This document shows positions 1 through 43,980 of a DNA stretch of 64,000 bases, in pieces (within the stretch, counting starts at the first letter, position 1; every line of letters starts with the position of its first letter). Origin of the DNA: Candidatus Micrarchaeota archaeon. Its GTDB lineage: Archaea; Micrarchaeota; Micrarchaeia; Norongarragalinales; SBBD01. Location: contig JAHJQN010000007.1 of assembly GCA_018819225.1 (NCBI GenBank), positions 64,001 through 128,000 on the forward strand. Reading direction: 5' to 3'. The notes beneath the pieces were generated by a model. The model saw only the letters and a program-made list of their open reading frames with translations. It ran no database searches and was not told the origin of the DNA. The translations under genes and the position numbers were made by a program.

Positions 1-375
1 CGCGAGCACGTGAATGAATTCCGCGAGCTTTTCTTCAGAATCAAAATGAAAAATCGGAATGCGGAAATCCGTTGCTAACGCGATCTCCGCTCCCAAAAGT
101 GCGCGGGGTTGCAGGCGACCGTATTTTGCGCCCACGATGGCCATAATAGGAGACTCGAATTGAGCGGCAAGATCTTTCGCCTGAAAAAAGAGGCGGCCGT
201 CGATAATACTGGATTCGAAATCCGCCGCGGTCTTTCGCTCGAGGGCGACTTGGTCACTGATAATATAGTCGCCGATCTCCAGGCGCGTCGACTTCAAGCG
301 AATGCCGAGTGAAAAGAGCTTTCGTGCCGTAGGGCTCTTGAGTTCGCGATCATCCATTAATATTTCCAGGTCCAT
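1..375 (-). CDS. ERCC4/XPF-family structure-specific nuclease (stand-alone; 3' part runs off the window)
   Basis: Not in ORF track; manual translation MDLEILMDDRELKS...RLEIGDYIISDQVALERKTAADFESSIIDGRLFFQ has the DxRE, GDY and ERKxxxD ERCC4 motifs. Confidence 0.9.
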   Translation of the reverse strand, partial: MDLEILMDDRELKSPTARKLFSLGIRLKSTRLEIGDYIISDQVALERKTAADFESSIIDGRLFFQAKDLAAQFESPIMAIVGAKYGRLQPRALLGAEIALATDFRIPIFHFDSEEKLAEFIHVLA

Positions 376-419
376 CCCAAAGAGCAACAAGGGGCAGGCT
401 AAAAAAACGTGCGGTCGGG

Positions 420-1175
420 TCAAAGCCATTCCTGGAAAGTGATCGAGAGTTTTTCGATTTCCTGAAGAGTCAAGGAACGCACGCGTCGGGACGCCAACGG
501 AAGTCGAGCGATACGCGTTTTCGCATCCGATGGAGAGGGGAAAGACAAGGACCGGCGGGAATGCCACAACGCATTTTTTACGGACTGGTTTTTATGCTGG
601 AATAATAGTTGAACGAGCTGGGGATCGAGATGCGCCTTCGGGTTCTTTACGAGGTGGACGAATGCGGAATCCACGCGCGGAACGGGCCGGAAGGCGGTTC
701 GGGGCACAATTCCCCATATCTCGACATCCGAAAGGCTTTGGGCCATCACGGATAGTCGCGCGTACTGAGGGGTGTCGGGGGAAGCGATCATGCGTAAAGC
801 GAACTCCTTTTGAAGGCAGAGCAGAGCATCTTGAAACGTCGAGTTTAGTATGCGGAAAAGCAAGGGAGATGAGAGGTGGTATGGAAGGAAGCCGACAATG
901 ACGGGAGCGTCCAAGGGGTGTATCCGGGCGTCCCCCATAATGACGTTTACGTTCTTCACGTCGCGCAGCCCGTTCGCGAGTTCGCGGGCCAAGCGCTCAT
1001 CCACTTCCAGAGCCGTTACCTCTTTAGCGTGTTCGGCGAGATAGCGCGTAATGACTCCCGTGCCCGCACCAATTTCGAGAACGCGTTTATCGGAAAAGTC
1101 GGCCAGATCTAAATACTCTTGAACGAACGAGATGTCGCGAAGGAAGACCTGGGAAAGGCGTTTTAATTGGCGCAT
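420..1175 (-). CDS. rsmA: 16S rRNA adenine dimethyltransferase KsgA/Dim1
   Basis: LSQVFL, VLEIGAGTG, LPY, LQKEFALRM, FRPVPRVDSA motifs. Confidence 0.93.
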   Translation of the reverse strand: MRQLKRLSQVFLRDISFVQEYLDLADFSDKRVLEIGAGTGVITRYLAEHAKEVTALEVDERLARELANGLRDVKNVNVIMGDARIHPLDAPVIVGFLPYHLSSPLLFRILNSTFQDALLCLQKEFALRMIASPDTPQYARLSVMAQSLSDVEIWGIVPRTAFRPVPRVDSAFVHLVKNPKAHLDPQLVQLLFQHKNQSVKNALWHSRRSLSFPSPSDAKTRIARLPLASRRVRSLTLQEIEKLSITFQEWL

Positions 1176-3197: not shown

Positions 3198-5246
3198 CTA
3201 AAGATATCGGGGGGTTGAAGTCAAACGCACGCGTTTTCCCTTCAAAATGGCGGTTAATTGAGCCGAGCGCAATCGTTGGGAGGCATTCGAAAGAGAATAT
3301 TCCGCGGTGAAGGAGCGTTCGACGAACGGGATGCACCATTGAAGCTGCATGCCGAGCACCGTATCGTCCATGGCACTCGGTGAGGGGACGCACGAGACAA
3401 CGGAAGGCGCAAAGTCTTCAATCATTAACGCGTGAAGCGGCTCGCGGGTTTTAAGATAAAGTGTCACGCGGGAATCTCGAACGGTTTTCGTAAAGTGAAT
3501 AGGGGGTTGGGGGAAACGATGGAGAGCGATGGCAAGCAATAGCAAGGGAATGAGTAAGAAATAGTGCCAAGAAAAGGAAAGAGCCAACAGACCCGAGACC
3601 CGCGAAGGAACGGAAGAGGGGTATGGAGAAGACGAGGGACGGGGAAGCACGCGGAACCAAAACGAATGGTTTGAATACTGGAGTTTCCAGTAACCGGGTT
3701 CGGAAAAGTTGAATGAACGAGATTCGGAGAGAAGAACGCGATACGGACGGCCAGACGGACTGGAAATATGAATCGGGGATTTGGGAGGAACGCCGTCATC
3801 CAGAAGAGTGATTGGGTATACCCCTAACGGAATAGAAGCCGGCATGAGAAAAATAACGAGGGGGACGCGGGCGTATTGGAGGGGAATGCTGGAGGGAGCC
3901 GCAGAGGGGAAAAAAGAGGGGGAGGGGAGAATGGTAGGAGTAGGAGAATTGACAACGGGAATTATCGGAGATGAGGAATAGGTGGAAGTTGAACTGGAAG
4001 AAGGGGGAATGGAGGGGGGAGGAGTTGGAGAAGGAATAGGAAGTTGTAGAAGAATGGGGAGGGAGTGATTCAGAAAGGAATTGTTTTCAGAAAAAGCGAA
4101 GACCGTGCAATTGAGAGCGAACGAAACGTTTTCGAGATTGAGGAAGAACGAGGCATTTGAATGCGAAGGACATGCAACAGAGGTATTGACACCCGAATGA
4201 TTAGTGCAGGAGAGCTGAAGGGAAAACGTATCGTCCACGAAACCAATGTTTTCAAGGGACGCGGAATAATCGAAAAATAAGCCGTCGAGTATAGGGTGCT
4301 TGGAAACATTGAGAATACGGGGATTCCCATGAAGAAAAAGAAAGGGAACCGCGGAGTCATTGAGTCTAGCGGATAAATGAGCGGAAACCCACGAGTCCGG
4401 TGGCGAAAAGTCGTAGTAATTAGAATAGTTTCCGGAACGCGTTTCAATCAATAGGTGATACGCCGCCGTTAATTGCGAGGTGGAAGCAACGGCGTCTGGA
4501 ATGGATAGGAAATAATGGGATTGGTAGTAGGCCCATGCACTCAAATAGTTTTGAAAATAGGTTGGAGAAAGCAAACCGAAGGTATCGGAAAGATTGATAA
4601 AGGAATGGTTCGGTTGAGAGGTATTGAGAGAGTAGTTGATGAGAGTGAGGGAATGAGAGGAGTCGTTGCAGGAGGAATGATTTACTGAAGCGGTACAAGA
4701 GGAATTGAGGGCATTGAGTTGAATGGAGAAATCGAACGATAGTAATTCAGAAAGATTGGAATAGTTAGTGGAAACAAAAGGACGGTAACGGTAACACCAA
4801 TCCTTCAGATAGTAATTCCCACAGTTCGGATTAAAATAATCGCATTCGTCACACCAAGAAAAATCACCGGGACCGGTAAACCCGGCTCGCTCGCATAGAT
4901 CCTGGCCGTAATAGTCCGTACAACCGTCCTCGATCACCAACGCAAGCCCGCCGGAAGCCGAATACAAGGGAAAGGAGGCATTAGAAATGAGATACGAGGC
5001 GTTCTGGGAAAGGGAGGTATTGAGAAGAAAAGGAGAGAGAAGGGACACTTCGCCGTGGGTAAGAAGAGATAGGTTAGAGGCGGGTATTTCGATTGAAGCG
5101 TTCGTTTGAATAAGGAATAGGTTGAAAGAAAGCGCGGGAACCCGCGAGAAATTCAGAAGCGAAACGTCAAGCGCAAAAGGAGAAGGGAAAAAAATGGTTA
5201 GTGACAGCACAACGCAAACAACGACACCGCGCATGGGGGAAGGCAC
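3198..5246 (-). CDS. Secreted/membrane-anchored surface glycoprotein, Ser/Pro-rich linker
   Basis: Signal peptide, many N-x-S/T sequons, Cys-rich segment, PS-rich linker, TM near C-terminus. Confidence 0.65.
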   Translation of the reverse strand: MPSPMRGVVVCVVLSLTIFFPSPFALDVSLLNFSRVPALSFNLFLIQTNASIEIPASNLSLLTHGEVSLLSPFLLNTSLSQNASYLISNASFPLYSASGGLALVIEDGCTDYYGQDLCERAGFTGPGDFSWCDECDYFNPNCGNYYLKDWCYRYRPFVSTNYSNLSELLSFDFSIQLNALNSSCTASVNHSSCNDSSHSLTLINYSLNTSQPNHSFINLSDTFGLLSPTYFQNYLSAWAYYQSHYFLSIPDAVASTSQLTAAYHLLIETRSGNYSNYYDFSPPDSWVSAHLSARLNDSAVPFLFLHGNPRILNVSKHPILDGLFFDYSASLENIGFVDDTFSLQLSCTNHSGVNTSVACPSHSNASFFLNLENVSFALNCTVFAFSENNSFLNHSLPILLQLPIPSPTPPPSIPPSSSSTSTYSSSPIIPVVNSPTPTILPSPSFFPSAAPSSIPLQYARVPLVIFLMPASIPLGVYPITLLDDGVPPKSPIHISSPSGRPYRVLLSESRSFNFSEPGYWKLQYSNHSFWFRVLPRPSSSPYPSSVPSRVSGLLALSFSWHYFLLIPLLLLAIALHRFPQPPIHFTKTVRDSRVTLYLKTREPLHALMIEDFAPSVVSCVPSPSAMDDTVLGMQLQWCIPFVERSFTAEYSLSNASQRLRSAQLTAILKGKRVRLTSTPRYL

Positions 5247-5326
5247 CTTTTACAAGATGCCTCCAACCGTTTGTTTGAATAATTCCCTTAGGAATAAGGA
5301 ATGGCAGGTTAAAAAAACAAGGGGTT

Positions 5327-5497
5327 ATGTCCGCTAATGAACCTGAATCTGATTGGGGTTTTATGTTTCTGTTGATGCAACCGAAAATTGCGTTATTGCG
5401 CGGAGTGTTCCTTTTCGCGCCAACTCTTTGGCCGCAGTGGAGAATTCCATTCACCCTACTAGTTATTGCAGGACTCGTTCAATTAGTGAGCGCTTGA
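5327..5497 (+). CDS. Small hydrophobic protein (56 aa)
   Basis: Manual ORF MSANEPESDWGFMFLL...LLVIAGLVQLVSA, preceded by GGGGT. Confidence 0.4.
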   Translation: MSANEPESDWGFMFLLMQPKIALLRGVFLFAPTLWPQWRIPFTLLVIAGLVQLVSA

Positions 5498-5547
5498 ACC
5501 ATAGGGAATAGGATAAAAGGATAACCGCCAATACTTTAGAGCGCGAT

Positions 5548-5654
5548 GGGCTCGTAGTCGAACGGTAAGACGCTGCCTTCGCAAGGCAGAGACTCCGGGT
5601 TCGATGCACAAAAAAGGCTTGAAAAAAGCCTGTGCGAAAATCCCGGCGAGTCCA
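5548..5654 (+). tRNA. tRNA-Ala(CGC) with 35-nt T-loop intron (59/60; 5606-5640)
   Basis: Acceptor GGGCTCG/CGAGTCC with G3:U70; anticodon arm CTGCC-TTCGCAA-GGCAG; perfect BHB (TTCG/CGAA, bulges ATG and AAT). Confidence 0.93.
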
Positions 5655-5694
5655 TTTTTTTATTAAGTGAGAGTACAACATAAAAACCCCCAAA

Positions 5695-6403
5695 CGCATC
5701 ACGTGATGCATTAGGGTTTGGTTTGAATGTACTATCTCCTCCAGAGGACCTAGATCTGGACGATCACGCTGCTGCCTTGCTTCGAGATAACAACTGGCTC
5801 TTGCGGCATCCTTGCCAACAACGAATCAATTTCCTTATACGACAAGCCACTTACATCAAGCCTCATAACAACCACCTACACGCATCGAAAGCGGATGAAA
5901 GGATATATGGGGTGTTGAGCACGTGATTTCCAGTAGTGCAACACATGATGCATAAATATTTTAGGTGGTTTAGCGTTTGATAATATAGATAAATAATTCG
6001 TTAAGATGACTGTGAAAAATCGGCGTTGTTGTTGTTTGTTTATTGTAAAAGTAGAATTATTATATTATTATAATGCGTCACGTGAAGCGTATGAATTTAT
6101 TATGAGTTAACATTCGTGCAATACCTGAGACAATGGGTGTTTTCTAGTGCTTCAGGTGATGCACCAATATTAAATTCAGTGCTTCACCTGTTGCGTGTAT
6201 GTTAAATCAAATGCTTCACGTGCTGCAGTTTGTTTTCATAATCCTTCAATTTACCCGATACATAGAGATGGTTGCCCGATCATTATGGTGTTAGGATAGC
6301 TAAATAGTTCAGATAGGATTATGGGTTTGTTTATGTATGTATTTGGTTTTTGTTTCTCCAAGTCACCTAAACAACTATTTACTTTAGTGCGTCACGTGTG
6401 GCA
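5695..6403. repeat. Array of ~8 16-bp palindromes TGCnTCACGTGAnGCA in an AT-rich region (candidate origin/centromere/terminus locus)
   Basis: Copies at 5695, 5937, 6074, 6117 (degenerate), 6148, 6180, 6212, 6388. Confidence 0.85.
5750..5866 (-). CDS. Small protein (38 aa) inside the repeat locus
   Basis: MRLDVSGLSYKEIDSLLARMPQEPVVISKQGSSVIVQI with GGTGGT SD-like sequence. Confidence 0.45.
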   Translation of the reverse strand: MRLDVSGLSYKEIDSLLARMPQEPVVISKQGSSVIVQI

Positions 6404-8059
6404 CTAGAAGTCCAATATATTCTTCTGATTCCCCACAATCAACTCCTCTTGCTCTTCGACTCCAATCTGCTCTTTATTCCCTATACTTTTCAACTCCTTT
6501 CTCAACTCATGCAATGTACTTCTCATCTTCTTCTCCCGTTGTTTCGAAATCCAGAAGAACGCCTCATCCTTACTTTTTCGCGTGATCAATACTATGGTGT
6601 TTCCTTCCCGAACCCTACCCGTTCTACCACGACGTTGTATCGCCCGAATTTCTGACGGCACGGCCTCAAAAAAGACCACGAGATCAACGGACGGAACATC
6701 AATTCCTTCCTCCGCCACCGACGTTGCCACCAACACATTGAACGATTTCGATTTAAACTCTTGCAACACCTGCGCCTGTTTTTTTTGGTTCATTCCCTCC
6801 TTACTTTTCCCAACAAACGCCTTTGCTTTCACGCCCGCAAATTGATTCAATTCCTCCACAATTTTCGTAACTGTATTGCGGTAGTGCGCGAACACGATAA
6901 CACTCTTTCCTTCCTGCACCGCATCCGATACCACTCCTTTCAACCTCCGGAACTTCGGGTGTTCCACTCCTTGCTTCCTCAATTCCTCGCACTTGATTCC
7001 AATTAATTTCCACCTAAAGTCCTGAAGCAATCCCTTCACTGCCTTGCTTTTCTGTTTCCTCTTCCCCATTTCCTGCATGAACCCCCACAATGCGTGAATA
7101 CCTTCTGTTTCCAACAAATCCAGCGCGTGGCTCACATTCATGGCTCTCGCTTGAACACTCAGCGCCCGATAACCTTCTGGTCGCATCGTAGACAGCTCCA
7201 ACGCCTTCCTCCGCGCATCCAACAACGCTCGCTTGTGCCGCTTTAAATCCGTGCTGTCCACGACCTCCAATTCCAACAACTCCGCTAACGCATCCTTCAA
7301 CAACTCCTCCAACACGCTCTTAATATCCATGAACGCCTTCGGCAACTCCACAAAAATCCAATCCAGTTTGACGGGCTTCGCGTATCCCTGCACATCCTTA
7401 TCGTTCTCATCCCGCACTTCAATATTCGCGATATTCAAATTCGTACAAATCTCTTGAATGACTTCTCGTTTGGAAGACGGGCTCGCGGTCAACCCCAAAA
7501 TAAACGCATGCTGTTTCGCTGCCTCTTTCGCTAGAAACGCGTACGAGTGCTCTTTCACCGCCCGATGCACTTCGTCAAACACAACGAGTCTGAACGCCTC
7601 CATTGAAACCCGTCCCGCCAACAAATCATATTCAACTGTTTGCGGTGTCGCACACACGATTTCCAAGATCGGGTTCGCCCACAACCTCTCTCTCAATGCC
7701 GGTTCCGTCTCCCCACTCAACACCATCACTTCCGTTGCCTCTTCCTTTCCCCAGTTAATCCGCGTTCCTTCAAACTCCAGCCATTCACGCAATCGCTGGC
7801 TTTGCTGAAGAGCCAGTGGCTTCGTAGGCGTCAAAAACAATATCTTTTTCTTTTTCCCTAAGCTCGAACGCTCCTCTTTCAAAAACTTGGCAATCACAAA
7901 CGCGGCCACATACGTTTTCCCTAACGCCGTCGGCATGATCACTAACGAGTTTCCATTCCTCAACACGCGCTCCGCCATCTCCACCTGGTATCCTCTCAAC
8001 TCTACTTGACCCGGCTTCAACGCCAGTTGCTTCAAAAAATCCGCGTATTTTTCCTTCAT
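6404..8059 (-). CDS. hef: Hef/Mph1/FANCM-type SF2 helicase lacking the nuclease domain
   Basis: MPTALGKT, PTKPL, DEVH, TASP, TSVAEEGIDVP, IQRRGRTGR motifs. Confidence 0.9.
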   Translation of the reverse strand: MKEKYADFLKQLALKPGQVELRGYQVEMAERVLRNGNSLVIMPTALGKTYVAAFVIAKFLKEERSSLGKKKKILFLTPTKPLALQQSQRLREWLEFEGTRINWGKEEATEVMVLSGETEPALRERLWANPILEIVCATPQTVEYDLLAGRVSMEAFRLVVFDEVHRAVKEHSYAFLAKEAAKQHAFILGLTASPSSKREVIQEICTNLNIANIEVRDENDKDVQGYAKPVKLDWIFVELPKAFMDIKSVLEELLKDALAELLELEVVDSTDLKRHKRALLDARRKALELSTMRPEGYRALSVQARAMNVSHALDLLETEGIHALWGFMQEMGKRKQKSKAVKGLLQDFRWKLIGIKCEELRKQGVEHPKFRRLKGVVSDAVQEGKSVIVFAHYRNTVTKIVEELNQFAGVKAKAFVGKSKEGMNQKKQAQVLQEFKSKSFNVLVATSVAEEGIDVPSVDLVVFFEAVPSEIRAIQRRGRTGRVREGNTIVLITRKSKDEAFFWISKQREKKMRSTLHELRKELKSIGNKEQIGVEEQEELIVGNQKNILDF

Positions 8060-8398: not shown

Positions 8399-9172
8399 TT
8401 ATTCTTCCCGCAGGTCGCCGTAGATAATCCGGTGCACCCAATCCATGACACCGAATTTCTCCTTATAGTCCACGCCCATAATTTCCGCCGCAATTTTCTT
8501 GAAACCAATGGCCGCCGGACTCTTGGGGAACGCGGTTACCACCGGCTGCGCCATCAGCGCGGCAGTCGGAACGGCGGGATCCTCGGGAATCTTGCGAATC
8601 GGGTGATCTCCGATAATATCCCGAATCTCTTCCTCGTTCGGCTCGCCTGCATACCGTCCCACCCGGTTCAAAACAACGGCCGCAACCTCTACTCCGATGC
8701 TTTCCGCCATTTGAATCGTTTTATATGACGCGGACAGTGCCGGCAGTTCCGGATTGGTTACCACGAACATGTGGTCCGCGCTTCTCGCCGCCGAAATGAA
8801 TTCGGCTCCCAAACCCGGCGCCGAATCAATAATGAGCGTGGTTTTGCGCTTCTTCAACTGCTTCAATACTCTCGTAAAATCATCTTGCGTAATTCCTCCC
8901 AACGAATTCAGATTGATGTTCGCGGGGATGACTTTCAACCCGCTTTCATGCTCGTACGTCGCATCCTCCACACTCGACTTCCCCCGAATCACGTCATTCA
9001 ATGTATTCGTTTCGAACGGAACCGAGAAATACAGTGAAATATCCGGCACCGGCAAATTCCCGTCGACTATCGTCACGTCGCCTCCAAATTGCGATAAAGC
9101 GGTTCCCAGGTTAATGACGGTTTGCGTCTTTCCCACGCCTCCTTTACCCGAACTGACGATGAATGAAGCCAT
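8399..9172 (-). CDS. minD: MinD/ParA-family ATPase
   Basis: Deviant Walker A SGKGGVGKT, IIDSAPG, IPEDPAV, C-terminal amphipathic helix. Confidence 0.9.
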   Translation of the reverse strand: MASFIVSSGKGGVGKTQTVINLGTALSQFGGDVTIVDGNLPVPDISLYFSVPFETNTLNDVIRGKSSVEDATYEHESGLKVIPANINLNSLGGITQDDFTRVLKQLKKRKTTLIIDSAPGLGAEFISAARSADHMFVVTNPELPALSASYKTIQMAESIGVEVAAVVLNRVGRYAGEPNEEEIRDIIGDHPIRKIPEDPAVPTAALMAQPVVTAFPKSPAAIGFKKIAAEIMGVDYKEKFGVMDWVHRIIYGDLREE

Positions 9173-29593: not shown

Positions 29594-30901
29594 ATGGATT
29601 TAGGTGCCGGTGTTCGAAAGGCGCTCGCGAAAATTACGGGCGCCACGCTCGTGGACGAGAAAGCGATTCAAGCACTCGTCAAGGAGCTGCAGCGCGTCCT
29701 CATCTCCAACGATGTCAATGTCCAACTCGTATTCGAGCTCACGAAACGCATTCAGGACCGTGCTTTCAAAGAAAAGAAGGCGCAATCACTTAATTTGCGC
29801 GAGCACATCGTCAAAATCGTTTACGACGAGCTCGTCGCTATCCTCGGCGAATCCTACGAGCCTCCGATCAAAAAACAACGCATTATGATGATCGGCTTGT
29901 TCGGCAGCGGAAAAACCACGAGTATCGCCAAACTCGCCAAATTCTATCAAAGCAAGGGCTTGAAAGTCTGCGCGATTGCCTGCGATATCCACCGTCCTGC
30001 CGCCATCGAGCAACTCCAACAAATCACGGAACAAGTGCATTGCGGATTTTACGGCGAGAAAGGAAAAAGTGCGGAAGAGATCGCGGCCGAAAGTCGCATT
30101 CTCGAGAAAAAATACGACGTACTCATTCTGGATACGGCGGGGCGGAGCGCGTTCGATCCCGACCTCGCCTCCGAACTCAAGAATCTTTCCAGCATATTCG
30201 AACCTCAAGAAACCTATCTAGTGGTTTCCGCGGACTTGGGGCAAGTGGCCGGAAAACAAGCCGACCAATTCCGTAAAGCCGTTGGCATCACCGGCGTCAT
30301 CATCACGAAAATGGACGGCAGCGGAAAAGGGGGAGGCGCGCTTTCGGCGGTTCACGCCAGCCGAGCCAAAATCGCATTCATTACACTCGGTGAAAAACCC
30401 GACGCTCTCGAATCTTTCGACGCGAAAAAATTCGTTTCCCGGCTTGTGGGTTTCCCGGACTTACCGACCTTGCTCGAGAAAGTGCAAGAGATTTCCGACG
30501 AAGAAGCGATGCAGCGCGTCATGGAGGAAGGCAAACTCGACTATGGCACGTTCTTATCCCAACTCCGCAGCATGAAGAAAATGGGGCCCATGAAACAAAT
30601 TCTTCAAATGCTGGGCATGTACGACGTCCCCGAAGAACTCGTGGGTAAGAGCGAGCAGAAACTCAAGCAATTCGAAGCCGCTGTTTTAAGCATGACTCCT
30701 TCCGAACGCACGAAACCCGATCTCATGAAGAACCGTTCGCGTCAAGAGCGCGTCGCGCAAGGCGCCGGCCTTTCATTATCCGATGTCCGCGAGCTCGTCA
30801 GCAACTTCGAGCGCATGAACAAGATGATGAAGGGATTGAAAGGCAACCGCGGCCTTTCCAAGAAATTCCAGCGCATGCTCCCGCAAGGATTTAAATTCTG
30901 A
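29594..30901 (+). CDS. srp54: Signal recognition particle protein SRP54
   Basis: GLFGSGKTT, DTAGR, TKMDGSGKGGGALS, Met-rich M domain. Confidence 0.97.
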   Translation: MDLGAGVRKALAKITGATLVDEKAIQALVKELQRVLISNDVNVQLVFELTKRIQDRAFKEKKAQSLNLREHIVKIVYDELVAILGESYEPPIKKQRIMMIGLFGSGKTTSIAKLAKFYQSKGLKVCAIACDIHRPAAIEQLQQITEQVHCGFYGEKGKSAEEIAAESRILEKKYDVLILDTAGRSAFDPDLASELKNLSSIFEPQETYLVVSADLGQVAGKQADQFRKAVGITGVIITKMDGSGKGGGALSAVHASRAKIAFITLGEKPDALESFDAKKFVSRLVGFPDLPTLLEKVQEISDEEAMQRVMEEGKLDYGTFLSQLRSMKKMGPMKQILQMLGMYDVPEELVGKSEQKLKQFEAAVLSMTPSERTKPDLMKNRSRQERVAQGAGLSLSDVRELVSNFERMNKMMKGLKGNRGLSKKFQRMLPQGFKF

Positions 30902-41898: not shown

Positions 41899-42507
41899 TT
41901 ACTCCGTATGCGAACCGATTACTTTTTTTTCTTTTCGTTGTACGAGGCGTTGGATTCCCCTGATGACCCATCGGTCCAGGCGTCTCTCCTTTTTTTGATG
42001 CGAGGATTCCAACCAATTTCGGATGTTGGTGTCATGCACTCGCGCGACATATGTGATGTCTGGCTTCATATTCATGGATTGTAACCAACGCCGGACTCCC
42101 TTCGAAGAATCGGCTTCGTGATGCAACCCTCTGACTCCAAAATGCGTTTGGCTGAATTCGGACAAGGCAAGAAGTACGCGCGCCTTGAATTCCTTGTTCC
42201 GCAATCGGAGAGGCGCCTGGTATTCCGGCGCAAACACGGCGATGCGGCCGGTTCCCTTATCGGTCACTACCGAAAGTATTCCAAACTCCTTTCCGTTCCC
42301 GCCTTTCAAACGTTTGCTGATTTCCGGAGTTGAAATCCAGTGTTTGCCCGGCGTGTCCGTGATCCGGAGTTTCAGCTCCCGGTACCCCTCGGTTCTTCGT
42401 TCCTTATTCTCATACACTTCAATGCCTAGTCCCCGCTGTTCCTTGGGCATGCGCTTACTATCCTCGTCTGCCATTATAGCCTTTTCTGTCACCTCCCCCC
42501 GAACCAT
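41899..42507 (-). CDS. Hypothetical Arg/Lys-rich protein
   Basis: ORF in tandem with 41373-41891; start may be 42474 or 42450. Confidence 0.6.
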   Translation of the reverse strand: MVRGEVTEKAIMADEDSKRMPKEQRGLGIEVYENKERRTEGYRELKLRITDTPGKHWISTPEISKRLKGGNGKEFGILSVVTDKGTGRIAVFAPEYQAPLRLRNKEFKARVLLALSEFSQTHFGVRGLHHEADSSKGVRRWLQSMNMKPDITYVARVHDTNIRNWLESSHQKKERRLDRWVIRGIQRLVQRKEKKVIGSHTE

Positions 42508-42540
42508 TTATATTTCTTCATTGCGCCATTCTGTTGTTCT

Positions 42541-42804
42541 GGGGTCATAGTATAACTTGGCAGAACAGTAGCGACCTCTTTCTTTTCCAAAAAGAAAGAC
42601 CTCGACGAGAAAGAAAAGGGCATGCGGTCGCTGAAGCTCCAGTTCTTTCATGGCTTTTCATCAAGCCAAAAGAACGCCAAGTTAACGGCGTGAGGTAGTC
42701 TGAGCGTTAAGCGATGATTAGAGTGCCTGGAGCTCGGAATCATGAAGAGAAAACAGGCTCTACGGAGATACCTACGGATGGGGGTTCGAATCCCCCTGAC
42801 CCCA
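42541..42804 (+). tRNA. tRNA-Trp(CCA) with two introns (30/31: 42572-42635; 37/38: 42643-42769)
   Basis: GGGGTCA/TGACCCC; spliced arm GTAGG-CTCCAGA-CCTAC; both junctions fit BHB-like motifs. Confidence 0.9.
42643..42769 (+). ncRNA. Intron-encoded box C/D guide RNA (predicted Cm34 and Cm39 of tRNA-Trp)
   Basis: AGGTAGT-CTGA, GCGATGA, CTGGAGCT-CGGA; N+5 rule lands on C39 and C34. Confidence 0.75.
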
Positions 42805-42855
42805 TGTCTGCGTCGGGGCTCTGCCCCCTTGTCCAGACTGTTCGCTCCCCTTCCC

Positions 42856-43980
42856 TTATTTTGAGGGTTTCCGGAATCGACCAGTCGGATGCGATAAGAA
42901 AACTCGTCTTCTGGAAACCATGTAGTCAACGAGCGCTTTATTCATCCAAGGCGCGCCTGCTCCGACTCCGTAATTTTCATACAAGTGCGTAGATAGAATG
43001 CGTTTCCAATCGCGTGCCGAGGACGGAGCCTTCCGACTTAAATTCAAGTAGAATAGATCCACGGGAGAACTGCTTCGAACTAAATCCGCTTTCTTCTTGT
43101 ATATTGACGCGTTGGGTTCTCCTGCTCCTGAATATTCGAGGGCGGGCGATATTCCGCGGACGCCTTCCACTATCTGGAACCCGAGTTTGGCTCGGATAGC
43201 GGATGCCCTCAAGCGGTTCAGGATTTCAAGAAGCTCCGACTCCTGCTCTTCATTTCTTGTTTTCCTCTTTTTCAGAGATTCCATTCGGCCGATATCTTTC
43301 CGAGTCAGCGGTTCCCCTTCGATTAGAAAGTGTTCCGCCCCATTTTGAACGGCTTTACGAATTCGCGCATTCATCATTTCCGTTCCCAGTCCTTTCCCGA
43401 GGTATGCCGGGTTCACGGCAATATACTCTCCTACTGCCACTTTCGGTTTTCCGGGCTTCCGGCTCGTATGGGTCGTGGCGACTCCCACGATTTTCCTTTC
43501 CTCGTTGCGCGCGACCATGAAGTCATATTGGGGCCAGAATTCATGCATGCGGTTTTCTCGGAAGCTGTCGCGGAATCCGCTCAACGGCGAACGGTCTTCT
43601 CCGTGAAACGTCCTTCGAAGCAACCGGAACGCATCCGCTAATGAATTCCGTTGCGAGATTTCCTCTTTCGTCATCGTCGAATGTTTGAGCCTGCGAACGG
43701 ATGCTCCTAATCCTTTCACGGGGTTTTGCGCATTTCGAGTAAACGGAAGTCCGTATCTTCCCCTTTCGAAAGAAGCATCGTGTTGCCGCCATCCCATTCT
43801 ACGGATAAGTTCTCGCGAGTTCATGTTGCGGATCGCAGAAAAATCCGGCCGAGCGACATACGGGACGTGTTCTAACGTGATTGTTTCGCCCGTTTTCAAC
43901 CGCACGAGTTGAGGCCGCTCAAAAGAGCGTTTTCTAACGCTTGCGGGGTTGACCCGGCGAAGCGCTTCCGGCAAAGGCAT
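42856..43980 (-). CDS. GNAT-domain Arg-rich protein
   Basis: YIAVNPAYLGKGLGTEMM motif A; KLGF. Confidence 0.75.
   Translation of the reverse strand: MPLPEALRRVNPASVRKRSFERPQLVRLKTGETITLEHVPYVARPDFSAIRNMNSRELIRRMGWRQHDASFERGRYGLPFTRNAQNPVKGLGASVRRLKHSTMTKEEISQRNSLADAFRLLRRTFHGEDRSPLSGFRDSFRENRMHEFWPQYDFMVARNEERKIVGVATTHTSRKPGKPKVAVGEYIAVNPAYLGKGLGTEMMNARIRKAVQNGAEHFLIEGEPLTRKDIGRMESLKKRKTRNEEQESELLEILNRLRASAIRAKLGFQIVEGVRGISPALEYSGAGEPNASIYKKKADLVRSSSPVDLFYLNLSRKAPSSARDWKRILSTHLYENYGVGAGAPWMNKALVDYMVSRRRVFLSHPTGRFRKPSK

Follow-up and report, generated by a model that had tools for sequence, protein, structure and literature searches.

Methods that find archaeal replication origins rely on ORB boxes adjoining the orc1/cdc6 gene, and under the bacterial rule a cumulative GC-skew maximum marks the replication terminus. 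The Xer/dif terminus site consists of one 28-bp element in which a 6-bp spacer separates 11-bp inverted arms. Predicted origins in two Thermococcus species are located 349 to 453 kb from cdc6 (PMC4640148), and inverted GC skew has been described at mapped haloarchaeal origins (PMC2841640, Fig. 2 legend; also PMC12999951, section 3.2). For archaea generally, third-position and non-coding skews deviate from the bacterial pattern (PMC12999951, section 3.2). Our literature search found no publication on Micrarchaeota origins or on DPANN replication origins. Here we describe an array of palindromes that most likely represents a kind of origin not described for archaea, one that carries no standard origin boxes and does not lie beside the initiator gene.

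The DNA analyzed is a stretch of 64,000 nucleotides (the window; G000:C6:64001-128000) from a 1.37-Mb genome in eight contigs (G000), and a search of sequencing runs with this stretch returned matches only to assembled contigs from groundwater metagenomes. A gene-free gap of 750 bp separates the tRNA-Ala gene from the 3′ end of the Hef helicase gene (Table 1). Because these two genes are convergent, the gap is not their promoter. Within 5695-6403 it holds eight copies of TGCNTCACGTGANGCA, seven of them strong and one weak, and the repeats are symmetric, perfect-dyad 16-mers with a CACGTG center. When up to three mismatches to TGCNTCACGTGANGCA are allowed, 7 of the 10 matches in the window fall inside 5695-6403 (2.3 are expected in the whole window), and a total of ten was reached in none of 100 shuffles. 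A symmetrized weight matrix (PWM) gives 19 to 23 bits for seven of the sites and 13.7 for the site at 6117.

The first-pass annotation, made from the letters of the window, had listed eight such 16-mers, and all of them are present, including the weak one. The spacings of 43, 31, 32, and 32 bp that it gave for the central sites are correct, as is its remark that two successive spacers have TTAAAT in common (6170-6175 and 6202-6207). The adjoining AT-rich stretch that it pointed out corresponds to 5953-6073, where AT content reaches 77% versus 49% for the window, so that this segment ranks within the top 0.05% when every 120-bp window in the genome is compared. The palindromes at 5937 and 6074 bracket this spacer, with more copies on either side, and the same bracketing is found in the related genomes G002, G005, and G010. 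The annotation had also noticed no other such cluster in the window. A PWM scan bears this out for the window and for the 1.37-Mb genome, in which only eight sites of at least 17 bits lie outside the cluster, all of them singles or pairs.

Table 1. Coordinates of the palindrome array and of the features that surround it, in window numbering.
Feature	Position	Strand	Remarks
tRNA-Ala(CGC)	5548..5654	+	T-loop intron; Rfam tRNA match plus sequence reading; left gap boundary
Palindrome 1, CGCATCACGTGATGCA	5695..5710		PWM 23.3
Tiny ORF, 41 aa, MRLDVSGLSYKEIDSLL...	5750..5875	-	38 aa from ATG at 5866; between palindromes 1 and 2
Palindrome 2, TGCAACACATGATGCA	5937..5952		PWM 20.9; left edge of AT-rich spacer
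AT-rich spacer	5953..6073		77% AT; candidate DNA-unwinding element
Palindrome 3, TGCGTCACGTGAAGCG	6074..6089		Right spacer edge; almost invariant between G000 and G002
Weak palindrome 4, TGCAATACCTGAGACA	6117..6132		PWM 13.7
Three phased palindromes (6148, 6180, 6212)	6148..6227		32-bp period
Palindrome 8, TGCGTCACGTGTGGCA	6388..6403		Abuts helicase stop codon
Hef-type helicase gene, helicase half only	6404..8059	-	NF010337, E = 7e-161; right gap boundary
Archaeal MinD gene	8399-9172		TIGR01969, 205 bits; 2 kb from array

Apart from the tRNA, an Rfam search of 5300-6500 at a permissive threshold yielded no RNA. The protein encoded by the tiny ORF in the gap is conserved in G002 and G001, with apparently many third-position changes (as read by eye and uncounted). 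Neither a Pfam family nor a usable Atlas match could be assigned to it, and the sole hint of its nature is a Sigma70_r4_2 match with an E value of 0.23. Assignment as a Phd/YefM antitoxin was considered and dropped, as no analysis supported it. Because the ORF is missing from genus g4, its product cannot be a general palindrome binder.

Several features of the neighborhood deserve mention in their own right. Hef seems to be split in this genome: the helicase half (6404-8059, minus strand) covers positions 4 to 524 of the 781-position Hef model, and an ORF at 1-567 (minus strand), which continues past the start of the window, resembles an ERCC4-type nuclease as judged by reading its sequence. 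The helicase half and the ERCC4-like ORF are situated on opposite sides of the array in G000. In G001, the genes for KsgA, p389, and p682 are found on the helicase side of the array, and gene order on the array sides has therefore been rearranged between genera. A 682-aa ORF at 3198-5246 (minus strand) encodes a Ser/Pro/Leu-rich protein with many N-x-S/T motifs and without a Pfam family, homologues of which are encoded in G001, G005, and G006. The pyrimidine-rich coding strand of this ORF produces a strong local purine excess in the plus strand to the left of the array.

The first-pass annotation had suggested that the syntenic locus be inspected in related genomes. The array is retained in all nine family relatives in which this locus is assembled, always immediately beyond the helicase gene at its 3′ end and beside tRNA-Ala, so that together with G000 four genera are represented. 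Synteny between the helicase gene and the array holds across the whole family, and tRNA-Ala(CGC) flanks the array in every genus. The only 8-mers common to the ten arrays derive from the palindrome and from AT tracts. In every relative, an AT-rich tract 100 to 350 bp long lies ahead of the core sites. The core sites are spaced by 31-32, 43, 52-53, or 73 bp, and each of these distances deviates by at most 0.1 turn from a whole number of helical turns. The 32-bp phasing recurs in G002, and genus g4 exhibits spacings of 52, 32, and 52-53 bp. A site at the position of palindrome 8 is kept in G002, G010, G005, G006, and G001. In genus g4 the array persists although the gap contains no ORF.

Beyond this family, the motif is scarce. 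The sequence TGCNNCACGTGNNGCA occurs in 1 to 19 copies in each of the 10 family genomes versus 0 to 2 copies in 57 genomes from the ten other families of the order, and a control pattern for this count occurs in 0 to 3 copies across all 68 genomes. Among family members, G003 carries 19 exact sites and G007 carries 9. The motif is thus specific to the family within its order. No arrays are present downstream of the helicase gene in five genomes of other families, and there is no skew flip at that position in G016 or G040, the two genomes that allowed this check, the contig of G018 stopping about 3 kb beyond the helicase. As a separate observation, members of genus g4 (G005, G010, G007, G006, and G008) carry an extra palindrome within the helicase coding sequence, about 340 bp from its 3′ end. 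This internal site (for example L017:1835-1850) encodes Q-Q-H-V-M-Q-Q, and the equivalent segment in G000 is only a partial match.

The array coincides with an abrupt change in strand composition. On contig C6, raw cumulative GC skew peaks at 70352 (window position 6352) and raw cumulative AT skew at 69956 (window position 5956), both of which are inside the array. The proposal that the cluster might sit at a skew extremum was borne out more broadly, since the cumulative GC-skew maximum lies at the array in four genomes representing three genera. Besides G000, these are G005 (maximum at 88290, array at 88354-88780), G006 (maximum at 42184, array at 42312-42907), and G001 (maximum at 30014, array at about 30.1 kb). 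At 4-fold sites in G000, AT4 falls from +0.41 to -0.32 across the single 2-kb bin at the array, where GC4 drops from +0.17 to -0.28, and the sign of 4-fold-site skew is the same for genes on either strand. Whole-genome scans reveal the array to be the largest step of its polarity in both G000 and G005, with the amplitude of the skew peaking right beside it. These observations establish that the array is a fixed replication landmark.

No sharp flip of the opposite polarity is present in G000 or G005. The opposite transition is instead blurred and of low amplitude, and it extends over about 40 kb (G000:C2 75-116 kb; G005:C2 80-120 kb) in regions that are roughly syntenic between the two genomes but rearranged. 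In G000 the opposite flip, at about 116 kb on C2, corresponds to a 462-bp gap at a synteny break and is without recognizable repeats. A sharp flip at the array together with a blurred opposite transition is the pattern expected if the origin is fixed while the zone of termination varies. Note that GC4 and AT4 (the latter up to 0.4) have the same sign near the array in G000 (C6 from 40 kb onward, C5, and C8) but disagree on C7, C4, C1, and C2, or about 40% of the genome. In genus g4, GC4 alone is linked to replication.

The coincidence of a conserved palindrome cluster and an AT-rich stretch with the exact position of a strand-composition flip makes a replication origin the most likely interpretation. 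We consider it probable that the array is the main replication origin of this Micrarchaeota family, that its palindromes are recognition sites for a dimeric protein, and that the copies dispersed elsewhere in the genome are weak secondary initiation sites. In the mechanism that we envisage, the 16-bp palindromes would be occupied by a dimeric DNA-binding protein, and both an Orc1/Cdc6 of diverged specificity and a family-specific factor remain candidates. The spacing by whole helical turns would place such dimers on one face of the DNA, perhaps permitting cooperative assembly beside the AT-rich spacer. The duplex may open within this 121-bp, 77% AT segment, where the helicase would be loaded, and forks departing in both directions would write the sharp flip. 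The flip would presumably reflect initiation rather than termination. The dispersed palindromes, and the pair upstream of the S-layer gene in particular, may be bound by the protein that would occupy the array and thereby support weak secondary initiation, possibly in addition to a regulatory function.

We surveyed the known initiator gene and its surroundings. A single orc1/cdc6 gene (TIGR02928, 292 bits) is located at about 57.8-59.1 kb on C2 of G000, in agreement with the first-pass statement that the window contains no cdc6, and its counterpart in G005 is at about 222 kb on C2. In both genomes this gene and the array are on separate contigs. The flanks of orc1/cdc6 exhibit neither a repeat family nor a nearby skew flip. 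With up to two mismatches, positions 5650-6403 contain no match to the mini-ORB consensus TTCCASTGGAAA. The array, with its eight 16-bp dyads that lack a spacer, does not have the form of a dif site. A search for Thermococcales-type dif (consensus from PMC4640148) with up to four mismatches found none in G000 or G005.

Gene orientation provides an additional line of evidence. Conserved genes in G005 read away from the array in 57.7% of cases (p = 0.018) when at least 45% identity to G000 is required, in 62.1% (p = 0.007) at 55% or more, and in 65.1% (n = 43) at 65% or more. The small transcription-linked skew is opposite in direction, and hence this bias is not an artifact of it. Genome-wide in G000, 49 to 53% of genes are so oriented and there is no bias, and gene directions around the array in G000 and G006 are mixed and uninformative. 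The rRNA, L2 r-protein, and rpoB loci of G000 also have mixed directions. Taken together, the AT-rich tract flanked by repeats, the sharp flip of maximal amplitude, the lack of a second sharp flip, the non-polar nature of the palindromes, and the orientation of genes in G005 favor an origin. The case is weakened by the lack of orientation bias and the mixed rRNA, L2, and rpoB directions in G000. Also against it are a skew maximum with the polarity of a bacterial terminus, the distance of the array from orc1/cdc6, the lack of a mini-ORB-like sequence, and the opposite signs of GC and AT skew over about 40% of G000.

The dispersed palindromes carry information of their own. In each of the eight family genomes with an assembled S-layer locus, one or two strong palindromes precede the S-layer gene (PF05124) at a distance of 430 to 800 bp, and other copies in G005 lie near the genes for polyprenyl synthetase and undecaprenyl-diphosphate synthase. 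The S-layer sites, which map to G000:C1:209995-210100, to G005:C6:399803-400013, and to corresponding positions in six further family genomes, are situated about 150 to 250 bp upstream of a conserved promoter-like block. At 5 of 5 non-array loci in G000 and at 5 of 6 in G005, the dispersed strong palindromes are accompanied by a skew step whose polarity matches that of the step at the array. Permutation p values for these steps range from 0.0004 to 0.046 in G000 (GC4 and AT4, three window sizes) and are at most 0.0001 in G005 (GC4), and the result is unchanged when gene strands are weighted equally. AT skew in G005, which is not linked to replication, gives no step signal at the dispersed sites.

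The size of the step grows with the number of sites, from single copies to pairs to the array. When steps are ranked genome-wide, the S-layer pair takes second place in G000 as well as in G005, and two single sites occupy the third and fourth places in G005. At the S-layer locus of G000, the local change in GC4 peaks about 4 kb from the sites and is noisy at the 2.5-kb resolution used. We also considered that the palindromes might be inversion breakpoints, and this was rejected because step polarity is shared across the loci of G000 and G005. One further copy merits a separate comment. A strong palindrome at 193801 on C7 of G000 falls within the coding sequence of a 349-aa protein (G000:C7:193500-194549, minus strand), the G005 orthologue of which (31% identity) lacks the site. 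From its sequence, this protein appears to combine an extracellular domain and a winged-helix-like segment at its C terminus with a signal peptide and a single membrane helix.

These observations invite a bolder proposal, which we offer only tentatively. The CACGTG palindrome could be the recognition element of an initiation system that, in this one family, has replaced the ORB-based, orc1-adjacent origin. The eight-site array would be the main origin, and each of the strong dispersed copies, including the S-layer pair in eight genomes, would be a secondary origin that fires less often. The binding protein might then be an Orc1/Cdc6 with a new target or else a novel initiator that also regulates cell-envelope genes.

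The leading alternative reverses the direction of events. The palindromes might be tight protein-binding sites that stop or pause forks arriving from both sides, in which case the array would be a fixed terminus, the dispersed copies would be weaker convergence sites, initiation would be diffuse or located elsewhere, and the leading strand would be G-rich, as it is in bacteria. We think this unlikely. A skew profile is identical under time reversal, and therefore skew by itself does not separate fixed origins and diffuse termini from fixed sites of fork convergence and diffuse initiation. The location of the cumulative GC-skew maximum at the array in four genomes is the polarity of a bacterial terminus, steps at dispersed sites that share one polarity and grow with site number are what graded barriers would give, and the SSU rRNA gene and L2 r-protein operon of G000 would be on the leading strand that this alternative assigns. 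However, because of the inverted skew of haloarchaea and the non-bacterial skews of archaea, polarity decides nothing between origin and terminus.

Several points argue against a terminus. A palindrome lacks the polarity of known fork traps, and the conserved AT-rich spacer would be left without a role. If the array halted nearly all forks, none would reach the secondary barriers, and additional initiation zones would have to be assumed. Moreover, there is no sharp opposite flip in G000 or G005, and none at orc1/cdc6, and conserved genes in G005 would face replication head-on. To our knowledge, fixed termini combined with diffuse origins are not known in any prokaryote.

A less plausible alternative is that the palindromes serve as operators for an ordinary transcription factor whose regulon includes the S-layer gene, and that the array is a high-density binding hub or a control region for the tiny ORF or an unseen RNA, placed in the origin region by chance. 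The sites that precede the S-layer gene in the eight family genomes with this locus assembled would fit an ordinary transcription factor as well, as would the G005 sites near the polyprenyl synthetase and undecaprenyl-diphosphate synthase genes. The array, however, lies between two convergent gene ends, it persists in genus g4 without an ORF in the gap, and Rfam detects no RNA there other than the flanking tRNA. Seven or eight phased sites next to so AT-rich a tract are many more than an operator would require, and the skew steps at the array and at the dispersed sites would be left unexplained. The first-pass annotation had held that a motif scattered upstream of genes throughout the genome would point to an ordinary regulon. 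The dispersed copies proved to be few and to be accompanied by same-polarity skew steps, and the attempt to reduce the motif to a regulon fails. For these reasons we regard operators as quite improbable.

Resemblance to a bacterial centromere was also evaluated. The bacterial parS consensus, TGTTTCACGTGAAACA, agrees with the motif at 12 of 16 positions and has an identical dyad center, and the outer positions of the half-sites consistently differ. The earlier statement that no parB lies in the window can be extended, as a whole-genome search with PF02195 found no ParB above the family cut-off of 26.3 bits. The best match (18.5 bits) is a 135-aa ORF that contains ParB_N but no helix-turn-helix. 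The MinD gene near the array is syntenic in G001 (77% identity), whereas the best MinD match in G005 (33.6% identity) is about 59 kb from the array and the neighboring MinD-like gene in G006 is only 30% identical. A parS-like or SegAB-like centromere close to the origin, served by a partition protein and the MinD/ParA-type ATPase 2 kb away while initiation occurs at other nearby DNA, would suit the parS-like motif, the adjacent MinD gene, and the tendency of bacterial parS sites to cluster near origins, but it is very improbable given the lack of a ParB, the inconstant MinD neighbor, a gap that holds nothing else conserved to act as the origin proper, and the skew steps at dispersed sites that it leaves unexplained. 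Thus, for the first-pass proposal that a dimeric initiator or segregation protein binds beside a DNA-unwinding element, the tests bearing on an origin were favorable, whereas the ParB/parS part found no ParB to sustain it.

If the array is indeed the main origin, both marks by which archaeal origins are recognized, ORB boxes and adjacency to orc1/cdc6, are missing from it, and an archaeal origin would be specified by a different and symmetric recognition element. Origins would then have turned over inside one order. The family would also exhibit strong mutational strand asymmetry with an inverted polarity so far reported for haloarchaea. Furthermore, the copy number of a short sequence would predict the size of the local skew step, which points to graded origin strength. 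In practical terms, the 16-bp sequence could serve as a defined probe for fishing out the initiator in an uncultured lineage and for studying it in vitro.

Comparison with described systems places the array closest to archaeal origins of the Orc1/Cdc6-ORB type, with which it shares repeats on both sides of an AT stretch, a long non-coding gap, a strand-composition flip, and a single orc1/cdc6 gene in the genome. Its inverted GC-skew polarity has a haloarchaeal precedent (PMC2841640). The array is unlike those origins in that it does not adjoin orc1/cdc6, its motif is limited to one family, and its core sites are phased at 32 to 53 bp. In addition, its repeats have no polarity and no G-string, and the gap offers no match resembling the mini-ORB.

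Likeness to bacterial parS/ParB systems resides in the 16-bp palindrome, the TCACGTGA center, and a set of multiple copies located in or close to the presumed origin, along with a few dispersed ones. The genome that carries the array nevertheless has no ParB, the outer positions read TGC..GCA in the array versus TGTT..AACA in parS, and the array is tight, phased, and next to a candidate unwinding element, whereas parS sites spread over tens of kilobases. Iteron plasmid origins likewise contain directly repeated, helically phased sites (here with a 32-bp period) that abut an AT-rich region, but the sites of the array are palindromic rather than directional, have no adjacent Rep gene, and are chromosomal and conserved in four genera. 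Finally, Caulobacter Cori with its CtrA sites, and DnaA boxes that serve as operators, combine a dense cluster at the origin with scattered promoter sites for one protein. This likeness is one of logic only, as the proteins, the motifs, and the domain of life differ, and in the case of the array the promoters concerned would include those of cell-envelope genes such as the S-layer gene.
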